DNA from: Ignavibacteriota bacterium
GTDB taxonomy: Bacteria > Bacteroidota > Ignavibacteria > UBA10030
Assembly: GCA_963701295.1 (NCBI GenBank)
Contig: OY969585.1
Coordinates: forward strand, 2,624,001-2,688,000
Direction: 5' to 3'
DNA: 64,000 nucleotides
This document shows, one piece after another, positions 11,094 through 18,997 of this stretch. A program made the translations under genes and the position numbers. The notes below the pieces were generated by a model. The model ran no database searches and had not been told where the DNA came from. It was given only the letters and a program-made list of their open reading frames with translations. Each line of letters starts with the position of its first letter. Within the stretch, counting starts at the first letter, position 1.

Positions 11094-12014
11094 ATGGAGT
11101 CTGAATTCAAAAATATTTTTTTTCTTTTCATAACTTTGGTTTTCTATATACATATGTCATGTTCGCAGAACATAGTTCAAGCTGCATCGGTTGAGCGATC
11201 GAACGAGGATCAGTACAAAATATGTTTTAAAGAAGCGGATTTTCATCTGGGCAAGTTCGAATTTAATGAATCGATACAAAGCTGTGAGGCGGCTTTGCGG
11301 TATAAACCGGACGATTTTCTGATTCGGGCGATGATGTGCCTTGATTATTATGAGATAGCTGAAAGACTTGATGTTCATAAATCCGAGGACAAGGATAAAA
11401 AGATTGAGCTCTATAAGAAAATGATTAAGATTGCAGAGGAAGGTATTCGATGCGCTCCTGATAAAGGGGAATGCTATTTTATGCGCGGATTAGCCAATGC
11501 AAGGATGTCCACAACGAAAGGAATCATGTCCCAGCTCTTTACGGCAAAGCAAATTGAGAAAGACTGGCTTGTCGCAGTTGACCGTAAATCCGATTATACA
11601 ACACCAAACGGTGAAAATCTTCAGGCATCAAGCTGTTTAGCATTGGGAGTGTACTATCGGCTTTGCCCAACATTTTTTTTGATAAGATGGTTGTTTGGAA
11701 TCAGCGGAGACCTCAACAAATCAGTGGATTACTGCAGAAGGGCGTATGAACTTGATTCCACACGGATAGAAATTGTAAAAGAGTATGGAGTGGCCCTTAT
11801 TACTTCCGGACTGGACAGAGAGAATAAGAAGGATATTGAAGACGGGAAAGAGTATCTCAGAAAAGTTCCTTTCTTGCCATTGAGACTGCAGACGGATACG
11901 ATCGATATTGGTCACAGTAAAATGCTGCTCAATAACATAAATCTCTGTCCCGGTTATTCGAGGGATGAACAACAAGATGTTTCAGAGGAGTCTTATAAGA
12001 AAACACAGCAGTAG
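11094..12014 (+). CDS. exported TPR-like helical repeat protein
   Basis: hydrophobic N-terminus; TPR-like patterns (AALRYKPDD, RAYELDST). Confidence 0.65.
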   Translation: MESEFKNIFFLFITLVFYIHMSCSQNIVQAASVERSNEDQYKICFKEADFHLGKFEFNESIQSCEAALRYKPDDFLIRAMMCLDYYEIAERLDVHKSEDKDKKIELYKKMIKIAEEGIRCAPDKGECYFMRGLANARMSTTKGIMSQLFTAKQIEKDWLVAVDRKSDYTTPNGENLQASSCLALGVYYRLCPTFFLIRWLFGISGDLNKSVDYCRRAYELDSTRIEIVKEYGVALITSGLDRENKKDIEDGKEYLRKVPFLPLRLQTDTIDIGHSKMLLNNINLCPGYSRDEQQDVSEESYKKTQQ

Positions 12015-12080
12015 GGGATGTGTCGAGTGCGCTCGCAAATCATTTAATTTCAAGGCCGGCATAAGAGACAAAAAAGGAAA

Positions 12081-12132
12081 TGTCATTGCGAGGATCCCGA
12101 ACGGCAAAGTCGATCGGGAGACGATGCAATCT
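12081..12132. repeat. GTCATTGCGAG-family palindromic element (left arm)
   Basis: tgtcattgcgagg-[tcccga...tcggga hairpin]-gacgatgcaatc matches copies at 13379 and 14998. Confidence 0.75.
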
Positions 12133-12279
12133 ACTGAAAAAGGATTATCATAGGAAGACCTTGGCTGGCGGAGAAGCGGTTGGGGTCTGATTCACCGATG
12201 TGTTTTACAAAATTCTCTTCACTAAAATTTCATCCGTTGTAATAGATGTGAGGATTGGCTACATTTTAAATGAACGGTT

Positions 12280-12555
12280 ATGAAAGGTTTAAAAATGAAA
12301 CGGATCGAAGTTCTTGGAATGTTTTCAGGAGTATGCACAACATCAGCATTTGTTCCGCAGGTCTTTACCATATGGAGTATGAGGCCCATACCGGTCGTTT
12401 CCATTTCTCTCTCAATGTACGTGCTTTTTACTGTGGGAGTTATCGGCTGGGCTATTTATGGAATTAAAATTCGCGCACAATCGATTGCAATCATGAACGC
12501 TATCACTTCTGTACTTGCCCTATCCATCCTCGTTTATAAATGCGTGTATGGATAA
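12280..12555 (+). CDS. SemiSWEET / PQ-loop transporter
   Basis: TTSAFVPQV, ISLSMY, GWAIYG; three TM helices, 91 aa. Confidence 0.85.
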   Translation: MKGLKMKRIEVLGMFSGVCTTSAFVPQVFTIWSMRPIPVVSISLSMYVLFTVGVIGWAIYGIKIRAQSIAIMNAITSVLALSILVYKCVYG

Positions 12556-12560
12556 CCCCC

Positions 12561-12588
12561 GTAGAGGTTTAAAATATTGAACCCCTAC
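12561..12588. repeat. single GTAG...CTAC REP-like hairpin
   Basis: gtagaggtttaa-aata-ttgaacccctac imperfect stem immediately after the SemiSWEET stop. Confidence 0.55.
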
Positions 12589-12759
12589 AAAACAAATATC
12601 AATTTAGTATTGTTCATTATTGTGTATTTAATTATGTTAAAGACGACTGGTTACCTACGAAATTATTAATTGTAAAAACCATATTTATTCATTCTATTTT
12701 CCTTGATCCGCGCATAATATTTTCATTTCAATCACATACATTATAGAAGGAAAAACATC

Positions 12760-13281
12760 ATGCGTTATTTGCTTGCACTCATCACAACAGTGTTATTATC
12801 AAGCACTCTAGATGCGCAGGTACGTGTTAATCTCAACATCAATATAAAGAGCCAACCCGTTTGGGGACCGACCGGTTACGATCATGTTGAATATTATTAT
12901 CTGCCTGACATTGAAGTGTATTACTATGTTCCTCAGCATAAGTATTTCTATTATGAACGAGGGCACTGGATTGGCCGATCATCTTTGCCTGCCCGTTATC
13001 GTGATTATAACTTGTATCATTCCTACAAAGTAGTGGTGAATGAGCCGACGCCGTATCTCCATCACAAAATGTATAGAGACAAATATTCCTCGTTTAAAGG
13101 CCGTCACGATCAGGAAGCAATCCGCGATAGCCGTGAAGCAAAATATTTTGTCAATAAAAACCATCCCGAGCATAATAACTGGGTAAGGCAGCAAAGGCAT
13201 GATGAAGGTAATGGCAGAGAAAAGGATCGCGGCAACAAATCTGAAAGAAATAACAGACAAGACAAAGAAGATCGGCATTAG
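12760..13281 (+). CDS. hypothetical exported protein (Bacteroidota-type, Tyr-rich, charged tail)
   Basis: signal peptide, QPVWGPTGYDHVEYYYLPDIE motif, low-complexity C-terminus; GAAGGA RBS. Confidence 0.75.
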   Translation: MRYLLALITTVLLSSTLDAQVRVNLNINIKSQPVWGPTGYDHVEYYYLPDIEVYYYVPQHKYFYYERGHWIGRSSLPARYRDYNLYHSYKVVVNEPTPYLHHKMYRDKYSSFKGRHDQEAIRDSREAKYFVNKNHPEHNNWVRQQRHDEGNGREKDRGNKSERNNRQDKEDRH

Positions 13282-13298
13282 TTGAACTCTCGGTATGC

Positions 13299-13504
13299 GG
13301 ATTGTCCCGCAAGGCGGGATGCATAAAACACACTTCACGCAAAACGCTCGCAATGACAGAAAAGAAAAAAAGAACACTTGTCATTGCGAGGCTTGTCTTG
13401 AACGAAGTGAGGGAACTGACGAAGCAATCCGCAAAAATTGGATTACCATTGGAAAACTTGGTTTGCAGATTACTCCGCAAGGCGGGATGCTAAAATAGCA
13501 CTTC
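13299..13504. repeat. tandem GTCATTGCGAG-family arms (right arm, left arm, partial right arm)
   Basis: ctcgcaatgaca (13347) and tgtcattgcgag (13379) are exact reverse complements; ccgcaaggcgggatgc occurs twice. Confidence 0.8.
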
Positions 13505-13663
13505 GGCTCAACTAACCATTGAGATTCCCATCCCTTTTGCATAACTTCTTAGCAGATGTCCCGTTTACACAATTGTTTCGGCGGGCAGGCGATTGGGGAA
13601 TGAGCGGGTCACCGATGGCACCTAACCGTCGAGTTACCTGATGAGATTTTCAAGGCTCAGATA

Positions 13664-16600
13664 ATGGCAAGTGATAGAATATCAGCACGAAAGCAAGTAG
13701 AAAAACTCGTCAATTTCTTTGAAGAGAACATCTATCAATTCAAATCTACGTCCTTTAACGAAACTCAAGCCCGCCAGCAGTTGATCGATCCATTCTTCGA
13801 AGCTCTTGGATGGGATATGCATAACAGTTTGATGCTGCCGCTATTCCGTCAAGAGGTTGTGCCGGAATCGCGGATGAAGAGCAGCATTGCCAGAGAAGTG
13901 AAAGAACAAGAGCCGCTCTTTCCCCAAAAAGATACGCTCGGTAAAGAGCACAAAGAGTACGCTTCCATTCTGGATTATATTGTCGAAGATGAATACAAAG
14001 CCAATTCTAAAGAGGCAGTTAAAAAACCGGACTACCGATTTCGCATTGGCGGGCAAACGAAATTCTTCGTTGAAGCAAAAAAACCTTACGTCGATCTTGC
14101 GAAAAGCCAATCGTCAATCTTTCAGGTCAAACGATATGGATTTTCCGGTCGTGTGCCGATTGCCATCCTTACAGACTTTGAAGAATTCCGCACATTCGAT
14201 TGCACCCAGCGCCCCGCATTTGAGAAACCAAAATTAGGCATCATCAAAGATTTCGATCTAACGTACAAGCAATACATAGATCACTTCGAGCGTCTCTACG
14301 ATACATTCTCACACGATGCTGTTGCGGGCGGCTCGCTGGAAGCGCTGACAAAAAAGATGATGCTGAAACGCACCGGCGATTTTGCGCTTGACCGTGAATT
14401 CTTAGAAGATTTATCCAGATGGCGCGAAGAGTTAGCACGGGATATTGCAAAACATCCTAAGAACCGGCGGCTTCTGAATGATTACACACTCAATGAAGCG
14501 GTGCAGCGCATTCTCGACCGAATCGTTTTCATTCGTGTGTGCGAAGACAGGGAAATAGAAGTTGAAAATACACTGCTTGCCATTTTGCGGATATGGAAAG
14601 AACGCCAAGGCTTATCGTTGTATTCATTGTTGAATGATTTATTCAAACAGCGTCGTGCGTTGTACAACGGATTACTCTTCAGCCCGCATCCGTGTGAAGA
14701 ATTGGAAATTGGCAACGAGGTGCTGATTAAAATTTTAGAGAATCTGAATTATCCGTTCTCTCCGTATCACTTTAATGAGATCGGCGTTGAGATACTTGGC
14801 AGCATTTATGAAAAGTTCCTCGGCAAGACAATTCATCTGGCGCCTAAGAATGTTGTCATAAAAGAGAAACCGGAAGTTCGGAAAGCAGGTGGAGTCTATT
14901 ACACGCCGCAATACATCGTCAAGTACATTGTGGATAATACGCTGGGGAAATTGTTGTATAAAGAGACTTCTGTCATTGCAAGGAGTGAGGATCCTCAGTC
15001 ATTGCGAAGAAGCGCAGCGACTGAAGCAATCCGACAAACAGAAGAAAAAACAAGATTGCTTCACGATGAAACTGTTCGCAATGACGATAAAGAAGGGATT
15101 GCCCCGCAAAGCGGGATGCAAAAAGATTGCACTTCGCAGAAAACACTCGCGATGACGCCTAAGCAAGTTGCAAAATTAAATATCATCGATATTGCGTGTG
15201 GAAGCGGGTCCTTCCTGCTCGGCGCATTCCAGAAACTGATCGATTACCACATAGAATGGTACACCACGCACCCGGATGATATTAAAATAGAAAATAATGT
15301 GCCGGATGCCTACAAAGACACAGACGGCAATTACCATCTTTCGCCGCGCAAGAAGCGGGATATTTTAGTGAACAATATTTACGGCGTAGATATCGACCGG
15401 CAAGCAGTGGAAGTAACACAGATGTCGTTGTACTTGAAAGTGCTGGAAGGCGAAAATGCCGAAACCCTCAACCCGCAAATGACGCTCGCACTAAAAGAAG
15501 TGTACCTGCCTTCGTTGACGAAAAATATCAAATGCGGCAACTCGCTCATTGGCACAGACTTTACCTCGCAGGGAGAAATGTTCGATGAAGAAGCGAGGCA
15601 CAAAGTAAACCCGTTCGATTGGGAAATGGAGTTTCCGGAAATATTAAAGGCCAAAACTCTCCCCCTCACAGGGGGAGATACAGAGGGGGTCAAAGAACAA
15701 GAAATAATGACCCCAACCCAACCTTCCGCTATGAGGGGAAGGGGTGATAGCTCAGGGAACGGCTTCGATGTCGTGATTGGGAATCCGCCGTATGGTGCGG
15801 AGTTTGATGGAGAAGTTAAAACGTACTTCTTTAGCAAATACATTTTGCAGGATTATCAGCTCGAAAGCTATTTACTATTTTTGGAAAGAGCATTAGGCTT
15901 ATTAAGAAAAAATGGGTTTCTAGGTTATATTATTCCAAACCCATGGTTAACGAATTTATTCCAAATAAAGGTTAGGAAATTCATAGGTCAAAAAATTAAA
16001 GTTCTTGAAATCGTTCATTACCTTCAGAAAGTTTTTCATGAAGCAACGGTTGATACAGAAATAGTGATTCTGCAAAATTCTTTTCCATTGGAAAATGAAA
16101 TACAAGTATCGATCGTTGACGATTCCGCGGGAACAACTTCGAATCAAATTGATCAGAAATTATGGAAAAAAGCTGATGGCAAACCTATTAATATTTTTCT
16201 AAAATCGAAAGAAATTAATCTTATTGAGAAAATTTGCGCTAGAGCAAAAGTGTTAGAGACATTTTGTAAAGTTACTCAAGGGACGAAACCTTATCAAGTA
16301 GGGAAAGGAAATCCTAAGCAAACAAGAATAATAGTTGACGAACATCCATTTGATTCTACAAAAAAGAAAAACAAAACGTTTCGGCCGCTTTTAAGGGGGA
16401 GTAATATTAATCGTTATATAATAAATTGGAACAATGATTATTGGATTAGTTTTGGCGATTGGCTCGCAGAACCGAGATACTCGGCTGATTTTGATGCACG
16501 AGAAAAAATACTAATACGCCAAACAGGCGATAGCCTTATTGCTACTATTGACAGATCACAATTCATTGTTCGAGATAATCTTTATACGATTATAAATAAG

Positions 16601-16972
16601 TCAACATCTCTTGACTTGAGATATGTCTTGGGATTATTAAACTGTGCGCTCTTTAATTTTTATTACGAAACTCAAAATCCTGAAAAAGGCGAAGCGCTCG
16701 CACAGGTAAAAACAACAGTCATTAAGAACCTTCCCATCCGCACAATCGATTTTACGAAACCTGCCGAAAAGAAAATGCACGACGACCTTGTGTCGCTTGT
16801 GGAAAAAATGTTAGAGTTCAACAAGCAATTGCAAAAAGCCCATTTTGACAGCGAGAAAGAACCCATCGAGCGCCAAATCGCCGCCGCAGATAAAAAGATA
16901 GATGAGCTTGTGTATCAATTGTATGGTTTGACGGAGGAAGAAATAAAGATTGTGGAAGGGAAGAATGGTTAG
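13664..16972 (+). CDS. Type IIG restriction-modification enzyme (nuclease + N6-adenine methyltransferase + TaqI/Eco57I-like specificity region)
   Basis: PDY...VEAKKP nuclease motif, GVYYTP, DIACGSGSFL (motif I), GVDID, FDVVIGNPPY (motif IV), C-terminal IDELVYQLYGLTEEEI. Confidence 0.92.
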   Translation: MASDRISARKQVEKLVNFFEENIYQFKSTSFNETQARQQLIDPFFEALGWDMHNSLMLPLFRQEVVPESRMKSSIAREVKEQEPLFPQKDTLGKEHKEYASILDYIVEDEYKANSKEAVKKPDYRFRIGGQTKFFVEAKKPYVDLAKSQSSIFQVKRYGFSGRVPIAILTDFEEFRTFDCTQRPAFEKPKLGIIKDFDLTYKQYIDHFERLYDTFSHDAVAGGSLEALTKKMMLKRTGDFALDREFLEDLSRWREELARDIAKHPKNRRLLNDYTLNEAVQRILDRIVFIRVCEDREIEVENTLLAILRIWKERQGLSLYSLLNDLFKQRRALYNGLLFSPHPCEELEIGNEVLIKILENLNYPFSPYHFNEIGVEILGSIYEKFLGKTIHLAPKNVVIKEKPEVRKAGGVYYTPQYIVKYIVDNTLGKLLYKETSVIARSEDPQSLRRSAATEAIRQTEEKTRLLHDETVRNDDKEGIAPQSGMQKDCTSQKTLAMTPKQVAKLNIIDIACGSGSFLLGAFQKLIDYHIEWYTTHPDDIKIENNVPDAYKDTDGNYHLSPRKKRDILVNNIYGVDIDRQAVEVTQMSLYLKVLEGENAETLNPQMTLALKEVYLPSLTKNIKCGNSLIGTDFTSQGEMFDEEARHKVNPFDWEMEFPEILKAKTLPLTGGDTEGVKEQEIMTPTQPSAMRGRGDSSGNGFDVVIGNPPYGAEFDGEVKTYFFSKYILQDYQLESYLLFLERALGLLRKNGFLGYIIPNPWLTNLFQIKVRKFIGQKIKVLEIVHYLQKVFHEATVDTEIVILQNSFPLENEIQVSIVDDSAGTTSNQIDQKLWKKADGKPINIFLKSKEINLIEKICARAKVLETFCKVTQGTKPYQVGKGNPKQTRIIVDEHPFDSTKKKNKTFRPLLRGSNINRYIINWNNDYWISFGDWLAEPRYSADFDAREKILIRQTGDSLIATIDRSQFIVRDNLYTIINKSTSLDLRYVLGLLNCALFNFYYETQNPEKGEALAQVKTTVIKNLPIRTIDFTKPAEKKMHDDLVSLVEKMLEFNKQLQKAHFDSEKEPIERQIAAADKKIDELVYQLYGLTEEEIKIVEGKNG
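14971..15156. repeat. nested GTCATTGCGA-family palindromic element, in frame within the R-M gene
   Basis: outer gtcattgcaag...ctcgcgatgac enclosing inner gtcattgcgaa...gaagcaatc / gattgcttc...ttcgcaatgac. Confidence 0.85.
15657..15744. repeat. CTCCCCCT/GGGGAG-family palindromic doublet, in frame within the R-M gene
   Basis: ctccccctcacagggggag...agggggtc and gacccc...ccttccgctatgaggggaagggg. Confidence 0.75.
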
Positions 16973-17954
16973 ACAGGGAGAAAATAACGGCGAAATAGTA
17001 ATCTATAAGGCAGAGGATGGAAAGACTGCCATCGATGTAAAGCTTGAACAAGAAACTGTTTGGTTGAACCAATATCAACTTGCCGAATTATTTAAGACAG
17101 ACCGAACTTCAATTCTAAGACACATCAGAAATATCTATAAAACAGGTGAGTTAGAAGAAAAGTCAACTTGTGCAAAAATTGCACAAGTTCAAAAAGAAGG
17201 TGGTCGTCGAATCAGTCGGAACATTCTCACTTATAACCTTGATCTTATTATTTCAGTCGGATACCGTGTTAATTCCAAGCGCGGCACGCAGTTTAGGATA
17301 TGGGCAACCCGCGTATTACGTGATCATCTTGTAAAAGGACTTACGGTTAACGAGAGGCGTTTAAAAGAACTGCAACAGACAGTTCATCTTATCACGGAAA
17401 TTGCAAAGCGTAGGGATTTAACAGGTGACGAAGCAAAAGCGCTCTTGAGCGTTGTGGAAGATTATACATTTGCGTTGAATTTATTGGATGATTATGACCA
17501 CCAGAAGGTGGTTCTTGCAAATACGACCGAACGTAAAGTGTATGCTGTAACGTACGATGAAGCGGTCAGAGCTATTAACCATCTGCGGAAACAATTTAAT
17601 ACTTCCGAATTGTTTGGGCGAGAGAAAGACGAAAGTCTTCGAGGTTCGCTTAATAATGTATTTCAGACATTTGAAGGAAAAGAACTGTATCCAAGTCTGG
17701 AAGAGAAAGCAGCAAATTTGCTTTATTTCCTTGTGAAGGATCACTCTTTTGTGGATGGTAATAAAAGGATTGCAGCAGCACTGTTTCTTTGGTTTCTTGA
17801 AAAGAATCGAATGCTTTATCGCGCAGATGGCACCAAACGAATTGCAGAAAACGCTCTTGTTGCAATGACTCTTCTTATTGCTGAAAGCAAACCGGCTGAT
17901 AAAGAAATCCTCGCTCGAGTTCTTACGAATTTATTGACAAAGAGAAATAAATAG
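16965..17954 (+). CDS. RhuM-family protein with C-terminal Fic/Doc domain
   Basis: ETVWLNQ, YNLDLIISVGYRVNSKRGTQFRIWA (RhuM); HSFVDGNKR (Fic/Doc); start overlaps the R-M stop. Confidence 0.9.
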   Translation: MVRQGENNGEIVIYKAEDGKTAIDVKLEQETVWLNQYQLAELFKTDRTSILRHIRNIYKTGELEEKSTCAKIAQVQKEGGRRISRNILTYNLDLIISVGYRVNSKRGTQFRIWATRVLRDHLVKGLTVNERRLKELQQTVHLITEIAKRRDLTGDEAKALLSVVEDYTFALNLLDDYDHQKVVLANTTERKVYAVTYDEAVRAINHLRKQFNTSELFGREKDESLRGSLNNVFQTFEGKELYPSLEEKAANLLYFLVKDHSFVDGNKRIAAALFLWFLEKNRMLYRADGTKRIAENALVAMTLLIAESKPADKEILARVLTNLLTKRNK

Positions 17955-17968
17955 TTGATGAAAATCTT

Positions 17969-18038
17969 TGTAAGGATTTGATTCATCAAATCTCTAAGAA
18001 AAAGGACGTGATAAATCACGTCCTTACAAAAGCAAAAA
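17969..18038. repeat. REP-like inverted doublet (GTAAGG...CCTTAC)
   Basis: gatttga-ttca-tcaaatc and ggacgtga-taaa-tcacgtcc hairpins; second copy at 21816-21884. Confidence 0.75.
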
Positions 18039-18057
18039 ACAAAACATTGCCACCATA

Positions 18058-18123
18058 GTCATTCCCGCGAACGCGGGAATCTCATGTTGGGAAAAGTAAG
18101 ATACTAGTTGACACGGGCATGAC
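18058..18123. repeat. GTCATTCCCGC-family palindromic element (ATTCCC-N8-GGGAAT core)
   Basis: gtcattcccgcgaacgcgggaatc ... decayed right arm cacgggcatgac. Confidence 0.75.
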
Positions 18124-18136
18124 GGAAAGAGGCAAA

Positions 18137-18997
18137 ATGGAAATAAAAAAAGAGAAAACAGCAACACTGCTCATTGTCGAAGACAGTCCGACGCAATTGC
18201 TCATACTGAAGAATTTACTCGAGAAAAATGGTTTTCATGTCGAGCGAGCGGTAGATGGCGAGGCTGCCCTATCTTGTGCTCGAAATAGTAAACCGGATCT
18301 CATTATTAGTGATATTTTTATGCCAAAGATGAATGGTTATGAACTATGTCAAACTCTCAAGCAGGACTCTAGTCTCAGGTCGATACCGGTTATATTGCTC
18401 ACCACGATGTCAGCTTCAGAGAGTATCGTCAAAGCACTGAATACCGGTGCCGATTATTTTGTCCCAAAACCGTACGATGAGAATTACCTCATTTCAAAAA
18501 TAAGATCCATTCTTGCTACAAAGGATTTGAACGGAAATCTTGATCAAAAAGAAACAATGGAAGTCGTGGTAGATGGTAAACGGTATACCGTTACTTCAAC
18601 CCGTCAGCAGATTTTGAATCTGCTTTTATCCACGTATGATGCCGTGGTTCAAAAAAACAATGAACTCGATGAGACGCAGAAGAAGCTCCGCGAGACGCAG
18701 GATCAATTAATTGAGAGTCAGCGCCTTGCGGCGATTGCAGAAGTTGTGAGTACTATATGCCACGAAATTAATAATCCTCTCACAGCAGTCATGGTACCTC
18801 TGCAATCCCGCTTACGGCATGACCTGCCGGAAAATTATAGAAAGGATTTTGAAGGATGGCTGGAAATGCTTAAGAGAATATCCGTTGCCGTTAAGAAGCT
18901 GTCAGGGTTAAAGGCATCCCAAACGACTTCGGCTGGGGGAGAGTTCAAGATGATCGATCTTTCATTAGAAGAAAATCAACAAAAGAAGAGCTCGTAG
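18137..18997 (+). CDS. response regulator receiver + coiled coil + HisKA-like helix, no ATPase domain
   Basis: IVEDS, DLIISDIFMP, PKPY receiver motifs; HEINNPLT H-box; upstream ATG 18119 lies inside the repeat. Confidence 0.85.
   Translation: MEIKKEKTATLLIVEDSPTQLLILKNLLEKNGFHVERAVDGEAALSCARNSKPDLIISDIFMPKMNGYELCQTLKQDSSLRSIPVILLTTMSASESIVKALNTGADYFVPKPYDENYLISKIRSILATKDLNGNLDQKETMEVVVDGKRYTVTSTRQQILNLLLSTYDAVVQKNNELDETQKKLRETQDQLIESQRLAAIAEVVSTICHEINNPLTAVMVPLQSRLRHDLPENYRKDFEGWLEMLKRISVAVKKLSGLKASQTTSAGGEFKMIDLSLEENQQKKSS

Follow-up and report, generated by a model that had tools for sequence, protein, structure and literature searches.

The window, by which is meant the whole stretch of 64,000 nucleotides that was analysed, contains a Type IIG restriction-modification (R-M) gene with hairpin repeats inserted in frame at two positions, termed here loop 1 and loop 2. 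The loop-1 element is a nested CGTC-type hairpin repeat that is translated in the host frame. The genome with this R-M gene is designated G000, and C1 is the contig label in its coordinates. The features discussed are the following.

12082-12122, + strand: intergenic left arm of the loop-1 repeat family.
13300-13357, + strand: composite right arm between genes, containing the mini-palindrome also seen in the loop-1 element.
13380-13504, + strand: intergenic left arm (13380-13431) and degenerate composite right arm (13467-13504), upstream of the R-M gene.
13664-16972, + strand: Type IIG fusion gene (restriction endonuclease-methyltransferase) that encodes 1102 aa without interruption.
14972-15156, + strand: whole nested hairpin element of loop 1, 185 nt, residues 437-498 of the open reading frame 13664-16972.
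14972-14989, + strand: truncated left arm of an older outer doublet; the junction matches the complete arm in the congener allele L021 and in L035.
14998-15085, + strand: inner head-to-head doublet, complete, with two arms and a 22-nt A-rich spacer.
15097-15156, + strand: composite outer right arm with a mini-palindrome inside; its final ~30 nt match the L021 right arm.
15103-15115: mini-palindrome CCCGC-AAA-GCGGG, lodged in the composite outer right arm.
15658-15746, + strand: second in-frame hairpin insert, in loop 2 before NPPY; resembles the arms flanking G000 DUF559 genes.
18058-18081, + strand: NTS/RPE-4-like hairpin (GTCATTCCCG...GGGAATC), located downstream of the adjacent RhuM/Fic gene.
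G000 C1:2938875-2939192: Ssn-like GIY-YIG gene, 105 aa, single-domain, with hairpin arrays on both sides.

The R-M gene encodes a nuclease, an adenine methyltransferase and a specificity domain in a single chain. Its identification as Type IIG in the first-pass annotation is borne out by the Pfam domains HSDR_N, Eco57I and TaqI_C and by a PADLOC match to REase_MTase_IIG (E 9.8e-174). The residues D123/E137/K139 belong to the PD-(D/E)xK-type nuclease, and DIACGSG from D509 and NPPY at residues 707-710 are motifs I and IV; all are intact. In an alignment of 101 sequences, D123, E137, K139, the CGSG of motif I and the NPP of motif IV are invariant. The dN/dS of the core is 0.04-0.07 against seven homologs, which indicates that the core is under purifying selection, as had been suspected earlier for the gene. 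The specificity region is 21-46% identical to the same seven homologs. A RhuM/Fic-family gene (16950-17954; best PADLOC match PDC-S23, E 2.6e-137) overlaps the R-M stop, and downstream in L025 and L027 there are N-termini similar to it. A second Type IIG gene of G000, at C1:3615188-3618076, has an empty loop 1.

The loop-1 insert had been described as a nested palindromic element of about 185 nt, read in frame without a stop, and this description holds. The outer GTCATTGC begins at position 14972 of the window, with T14971 just before it, and GCGATGAC finishes at 15156. The host frame across 14972-15157 is stop-free for 62 codons (VIARSE...KTLAMT); three of the other five frames have internal stops, one has a terminal stop only and one is open. 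Folding of the element is pronounced both as DNA (z = -4.63; 0/200 shuffles equally good) and as RNA (z = -4.47; 1/200), and the motif GTCATTGCRA occurs seven times in the window versus 0.53 expected, with six of the occurrences within 12082-15085. A chance palindrome as the origin of the element is ruled out by the shuffle folding together with the motif enrichment.

The internal organization departs in two respects from what was first proposed. The inner doublet is complete as claimed, but the outer element said to enclose it is not: its left arm ends after 18 nt, without the GAAGCAATC half that is retained in L021. The third hairpin does exist as a palindrome; it is not, however, an element on a par with the others: it sits within the outer right arm, and this composite arm also occurs by itself at 13300-13357. 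Mini-palindromes (CCCGC..GCGGG, CCCGA..TCGGG) are found recurrently lodged inside larger repeat arms, in the window at 13300-13357 and 15103-15115 and in G000 at C1:1685128, 1751803 and 2938777, and appear to be a distinct tiny element.

Intergenic kin had been placed at 12081 and 13299-13504, and they are indeed present, at 12082, 13300-13357 and 13380-13431, with the degenerate arm at 13467-13504. A search of G000 with a profile of the loop-1 family gave 27 matches, 24 of them outside genes of at least 150 aa. The R-M gene of the window is the only G000 gene with confident intragenic matches (2/27), a third match being weak (E 0.16). The repeat is multi-copy and mostly intergenic, and head-to-head dimers are found. 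No structured RNA family of Rfam matched over 11500-18500 to E 1, and no RPE peptide model was among the NCBIfam matches to E 1.

Homologs of the R-M gene form an allele series at this site. YYTP and CGSG are 41 aa apart in empty alleles and 104 aa apart in the window gene. On a tree built by a quick method without the loop (113 of 120 proteins, seven being left out), where loop labels are the analyst's peptide patterns and some are wrong (e.g. P0003, P0050-P0054), loop 1 is empty in 50 of the 113 homologs, which hold an 8-residue loop. A conserved structural loop at loop 1 is ruled out, as homologs without the repeat are empty and do not carry an equally long conserved loop. A congener allele (L002/L021) has a lone 95-nt outer doublet at identical junctions and is 90 nt shorter than the window allele; L035 carries a doublet related to that of L021. 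Of the L021-type outer doublet, 18 nt at the start and ~30 nt at the end remain in the window; the inner doublet and the composite right arm take the place of the middle, for a net gain of 90 nt. As the congener carries nothing but the outer doublet between these junctions, stepwise growth of the element is likely on comparison of the alleles, which agrees with the successive insertions previously proposed. The composite arm is also found alone at 13300, so local gene conversion may have contributed.

A filter for reading frame had also been suggested, and it is visible in the allele set. There are 117 distinct loop-1 DNA alleles, 63 of them empty-sized and 54 longer; among the longer alleles, some of which are non-repeat loops, 50 of 54 are in frame and stop-free versus about 15% expected, and 40 regions had been chosen by hand, chiefly because their matches were split.

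Modelled with AlphaFold, the window protein and an empty allele have the same flanking helix and strand, which are confident with or without the insert. The empty-allele model matches Type IIG and gamma-class adenine methyltransferase folds (CamA, MmeI, BpuSI, PglX). Residues 439-490 of the loop-1 insert have pLDDT <50 and no secondary structure in the model of the window protein, and the insert is predicted to sit in a disordered loop. Residues 71-115 (about 13874-14008) are also of low confidence in both models, a property common to the clade.

Loop 2 is extended from 25 to 60 aa by the second insert. This insert has a folding z of -5.13, and residues 663-697 of loop 2 have pLDDT <50 and no secondary structure in the AlphaFold model. 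The insert can be aligned with the arm that lies upstream of a DUF559 gene of G000; the family call is by alignment only, the link being undetected by blastn or profile search. The notion that the DUF559-type repeat has its sole coding copy in the R-M gene was dropped, as the profile missed the loop-2 insert and matched an open reading frame at C1:1902955.

When 68 proteins were compared with the empty protein P0058 as reference at positions under 640, the 93 insertion events of at least 8 aa included 64 in loop 1 and 25 in loop 2. Judged by these alignments, loop 1 is a repeat hotspot refilled by several unrelated families, and loop 2 is a second hotspot, absent from the first-pass annotation. 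A repeat-targeted hotspot had been proposed there, and the one found is broader, with unrelated families and two loops. Distinct repeat families in congeners were confirmed in DNA (GTCATTGC, GTAG-tagged, AACCTTCCGAAGG and CCCCTCTCC types), and loops of mixed family are found in P0007, L024 and L040. By the tree labels described above, the 64-gene clade that includes the window divides into 43 genes with repeat-like loops, 14 whose loops are short and non-repeat, six with empty loops and one unclassified. Loop 1 is empty in 120 of 144 measurable more-distant representatives, and heavy occupancy of the loop is therefore clade-specific. Loop 1 as a general recombination hotspot was rejected, synonymous identity being patchy and without a general peak; the only raised synonymous similarity near loop 1 is between the window and L021, at residues 404-560 (72-84%). 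Some Type IIG genes have hairpin repeats outside both loops (L068 at 1265, 2112 and 3418; L012 at 2415-2490).

A possible source of the loop-1 repeats is seen beside the small GIY-YIG gene of G000. The Ssn-like label of this gene is based on the Pfam GIY-YIG match and on residue spacing, its Y10/Y21/E68 having the spacing of SsnA Y6/Y17/E64. The right arm of the inner doublet is identical at 34/34 positions to C1:2938617-2938650, which lies beside this gene and 300 kb away from the R-M gene. The left-right-right order of arms is common to the loop-1 element and the GIY-YIG arrays, and a doublet without a gene, found to one side of the GIY-YIG gene, is similar to the inner doublet. The loop-1 repeat does not match the published SRM pattern, which has 14 matches in the genome, none of them in the loop-1 region or the GIY-YIG arrays. 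Other small GIY-YIG genes of G000 (C1:3414933-3415190, 3297511-3297822 and 2356111-2356476) adjoin tRNA-like sequence and have partial duplications of that sequence on the far side. Two of these three have a CCCGC...GCGGG mini-palindrome; they appear to be a second type of GIY-YIG cassette.

The reading preferred here, and held to be moderately probable, is that hairpin repeats spread locally as gene-less derivatives of cassettes and nest in earlier arrivals. The loop-1 insert would be a stack of non-coding hairpin repeats related to those around the small GIY-YIG gene of G000, with a newer repeat pair that likely landed inside an older one. Selection on the enzyme would have weeded out the out-of-frame outcomes, and the peptide of the insert would be near-neutral baggage. 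The parent units were probably hairpin-flanked mini-cassettes, the gene-less derivatives of which spread as doublets. Spread was probably begun by single-strand cuts of a cognate Ssn-like nuclease, followed by recombination or gene conversion between arms, and a colonised loop would draw further arrivals as it is eroded and then refilled. Distance counts against the Ssn-like link, as the G000 gene is 300 kb away and Ssn adjoins only 1 of 115 loci. Also, near-neutral tolerance alone leaves the lack of empty alleles among the 12 closest genes unexplained.

The main alternative, which is unlikely, is that an arm-GIY-YIG-arm cassette inserted at the loop-1 codon and lost its gene by deletion in situ, and that repeated cycles of different cassettes make the hotspot. 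Whole cassettes within R-M genes favour it. A whole Y1_Tnp domain is found in frame in loop 2 of P0142, P0201 and P0216, and a whole DUF559 domain in P0228 and P0265; these amount to 5 of 135 measurable representatives (the P0201 cluster has n = 12) and lie inside the methyltransferase domain. Genes for a four-helix bundle (PF05635, an assignment made on L136 and L138) are located in another frame within loop 1, between short-period repeat arms, in L136 (2307-2636), L138 (2301-2675, minus strand) and L132 (2580-2891). Around them the host frame remains open in L136 and in L138, and in L132 it is shifted. Back-translation scores for the bundle in loop 1 are 310 for P0158 versus a null of 168 +/- 13 and 200 for P0181 versus 143 +/- 14. 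Also consistent with a cassette that lost its gene is the loop-1 doublet of L034, which consists of the upstream and downstream arms of a G000 DUF559 cassette without the gene, and Ssn relatives P0121 and P0125 read through as arm-gene-arm.

Genes of these cassette types also adjoin the R-M gene, which is in favour of the preferred reading. DUF559 is at 10, RAYT at 6 and Ssn at 1 of 115 distinct loci, all co-oriented, where about 0.1-0.16 would be expected for each from the density in the single genome G000, the host loci being related and kin not independent. In L068, two intragenic copies are nearly identical to an arm of the adjoining DUF559 gene. In L124 (2-193, minus strand), an Ssn-like GIY-YIG gene and a GTCACCCCG-type hairpin doublet are directly downstream of the Type IIG gene.

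Direct examples with the GIY-YIG gene itself were not found, however. None of the 115 distinct loci has GIY-YIG inside loop 1, no R-M protein among the stored proteins was matched by the Ssn query, and GIY-YIG fused to or inside an R-M gene was accordingly rejected for these loci and proteins. A weak search for longer forms matched eight of 145 candidates, and a methyltransferase domain was absent from all eight; a further search for GIY-YIG-R-M forms gave one match, the window itself, among an uninformative set of 12 candidates. No nuclease domain is present in loop 1 across the 64-gene clade, where repeats are commonest, and the doublet that the inner one matches, to one side of the G000 GIY-YIG gene, is itself gene-less. 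The first-pass annotation had offered a cassette scar as one explanation and had looked to homologs for empty, filled and nuclease-containing alleles. Empty and filled alleles were found, as were DUF559 and Y1 domains in loop 2 and four-helix bundles in loop 1 of distant homologs, and DUF559-type doublets that are cassette arms without a gene; neither loop was seen with GIY-YIG. Without such an allele, support for the scar idea at the window element is only partial; the idea has good analogues from other cassettes and no direct example.

It is rather improbable that the hairpins or the loop are selected by the host, either as cut or recombination points that tune how R-M alleles and specificity domains are exchanged, or because they alter the mRNA or the enzyme surface. 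The 12-gene subclade that includes the window (support 97) is filled throughout, by five repeat types, as a benefit to the host would predict, and the RNA hairpin is strong (z -4.47). Loop 2 is just before the point where identity of the R-M protein falls: it is about 90% up to residue 709 and 35-37% beyond. Exchange of specificity domains after motif IV is nevertheless usual in Type IIG enzymes in the absence of repeats. In Neisseria, less transforming DNA is integrated when SsnA cuts at its repeats (PMC11893778), which would suit a role in exchange. Opposed to a host benefit are the empty alleles, present within the clade (6/64) and dominant outside it (120/144 measurable representatives), the unconstrained length and sequence of the loop, and synonymous identity without a general peak at loop 1. 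That the gene is a recently silenced relic, open in frame by luck, is highly improbable given an unbroken 1102-aa frame that runs through both inserts, the invariant catalytic residues, a core dN/dS of about 0.05 and the in-frame bias across alleles, although pairwise dN/dS averages over history and is compatible with a very recent loss.

The preferred reading, local spread of gene-less repeats, can be extended tentatively. Loops 1 and 2 of Type IIG methyltransferase domains might serve as a common insertion site within the gene for unrelated mini-cassettes with flanking hairpins (Ssn GIY-YIG, DUF559, RAYT/Y1 and IVS four-helix bundle), which would ride with R-M genes, enter the loops, collapse to arms and overwrite each other. 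The window would be a snapshot of one overwrite, and Ssn nucleases would be the missing mobilisers of CGTC-type repeats. This extension is possible, yet doubtful.

In-frame insertion of REP or RPE sequences is itself ordinary and long published, since the Rickettsia RPEs. That coding insertions of palindromic repeats are known, as the first-pass annotation stated, is evident from RPEs and from intragenic CGTC and GTAG REPs in the accessible parts of two papers (PMC3733652, PMC2229807). No report of multi-family repeat hotspots in Type IIG loops was found in the literature, in which subscription papers were thinly covered. What is added here is an allele series at one codon, consisting of empty, single doublet, nested doublet, other families and whole cassette, in genes about 90% identical. 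The two loops mark positions where Type IIG enzymes appear to accept 60-240 extra residues. CGTC repeats are not known to have a mobiliser (PMC3733652), and the mobility of Ssn is hypothetical only (PMC11893778); the window locus gives a defined enzyme, a donor arm and a natural target for testing Ssn mobility.

Several known systems resemble the window repeat. The loop-1 family has a terminal CGTC/TGTC-type tag, AGTC in some copies, and an AT-starting stem. CGTC-tagged REPs, as far as described in the main text of PMC3733652, similarly have a terminal (C/T/A)GTC tag, an AT-starting stem, head-to-head dimers, clusters and in-frame intragenic units. Families 1-4 of these REPs have an 8-9-bp stem, a 4-5-nt loop and a CCA-like tail, whereas the window arms enclose 12-30 nt and the window element is nested (main text of PMC3733652). 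Compared with that description, the loop-1 repeat is a relative of the CGTC-REP superfamily that is outside the four families. The same text names no mobiliser for CGTC repeats, does not mention 'restriction' and has no multi-family hotspot in R-M enzymes, and a GTAG REP dimer is tabulated in an N-6 DNA methylase of O. terrae (Di Nocera et al. 2013, PMC3733652).

The SsnA/NTS system (Chenal et al. 2025, PMC11893778) is like that of G000, by the sections available, in its small single-domain GIY-YIG gene, GTC-tagged flanking hairpins and Y-Y-E spacing. It differs in that Ssn-related motifs fit the published SRM pattern, which the window repeat fails. Chenal et al. liken arm-gene-arm to a mobile element, mobility being only a hypothesis, and in those sections R-M genes as targets and the word 'methyltransferase' are absent (PMC11893778).

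GTAG-type doublets and Y1 domains are present in the same loops of R-M homologs. The REPIN concept is an established one and pertinent here. REP/REPIN/BIME sequences with RAYT share with the window gene-less doublets of arms that flank a small enzyme gene, and compound clusters, so far as the consulted parts of PMC3733652 and PMC11893778 describe them. The partner enzyme differs: it is the RAYT transposase in REP/REPIN and a candidate GIY-YIG nuclease, without known joining activity, in the present case.

Motif order is conserved between the R-M protein and CamA-type gamma-class adenine methyltransferases, and the stretch from YYTP to motif I is short in CamA, as in empty alleles, in the one alignment inspected. 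An HNH insertion in a phage methylase is reported for ShiLan (PMC11855218). RPEs are, like the loop-1 element, palindromic DNA read in frame inside working proteins and absent from homologs, and guanylate kinase with an RPE remains active, according to the available text of PMC2229807 and PMC3733652. RPEs form single-genus families of 105-146 nt across many genes in these accounts; the window repeat, in contrast, has one confident coding target in its genome, and unrelated families occupy the same loop across its relatives.
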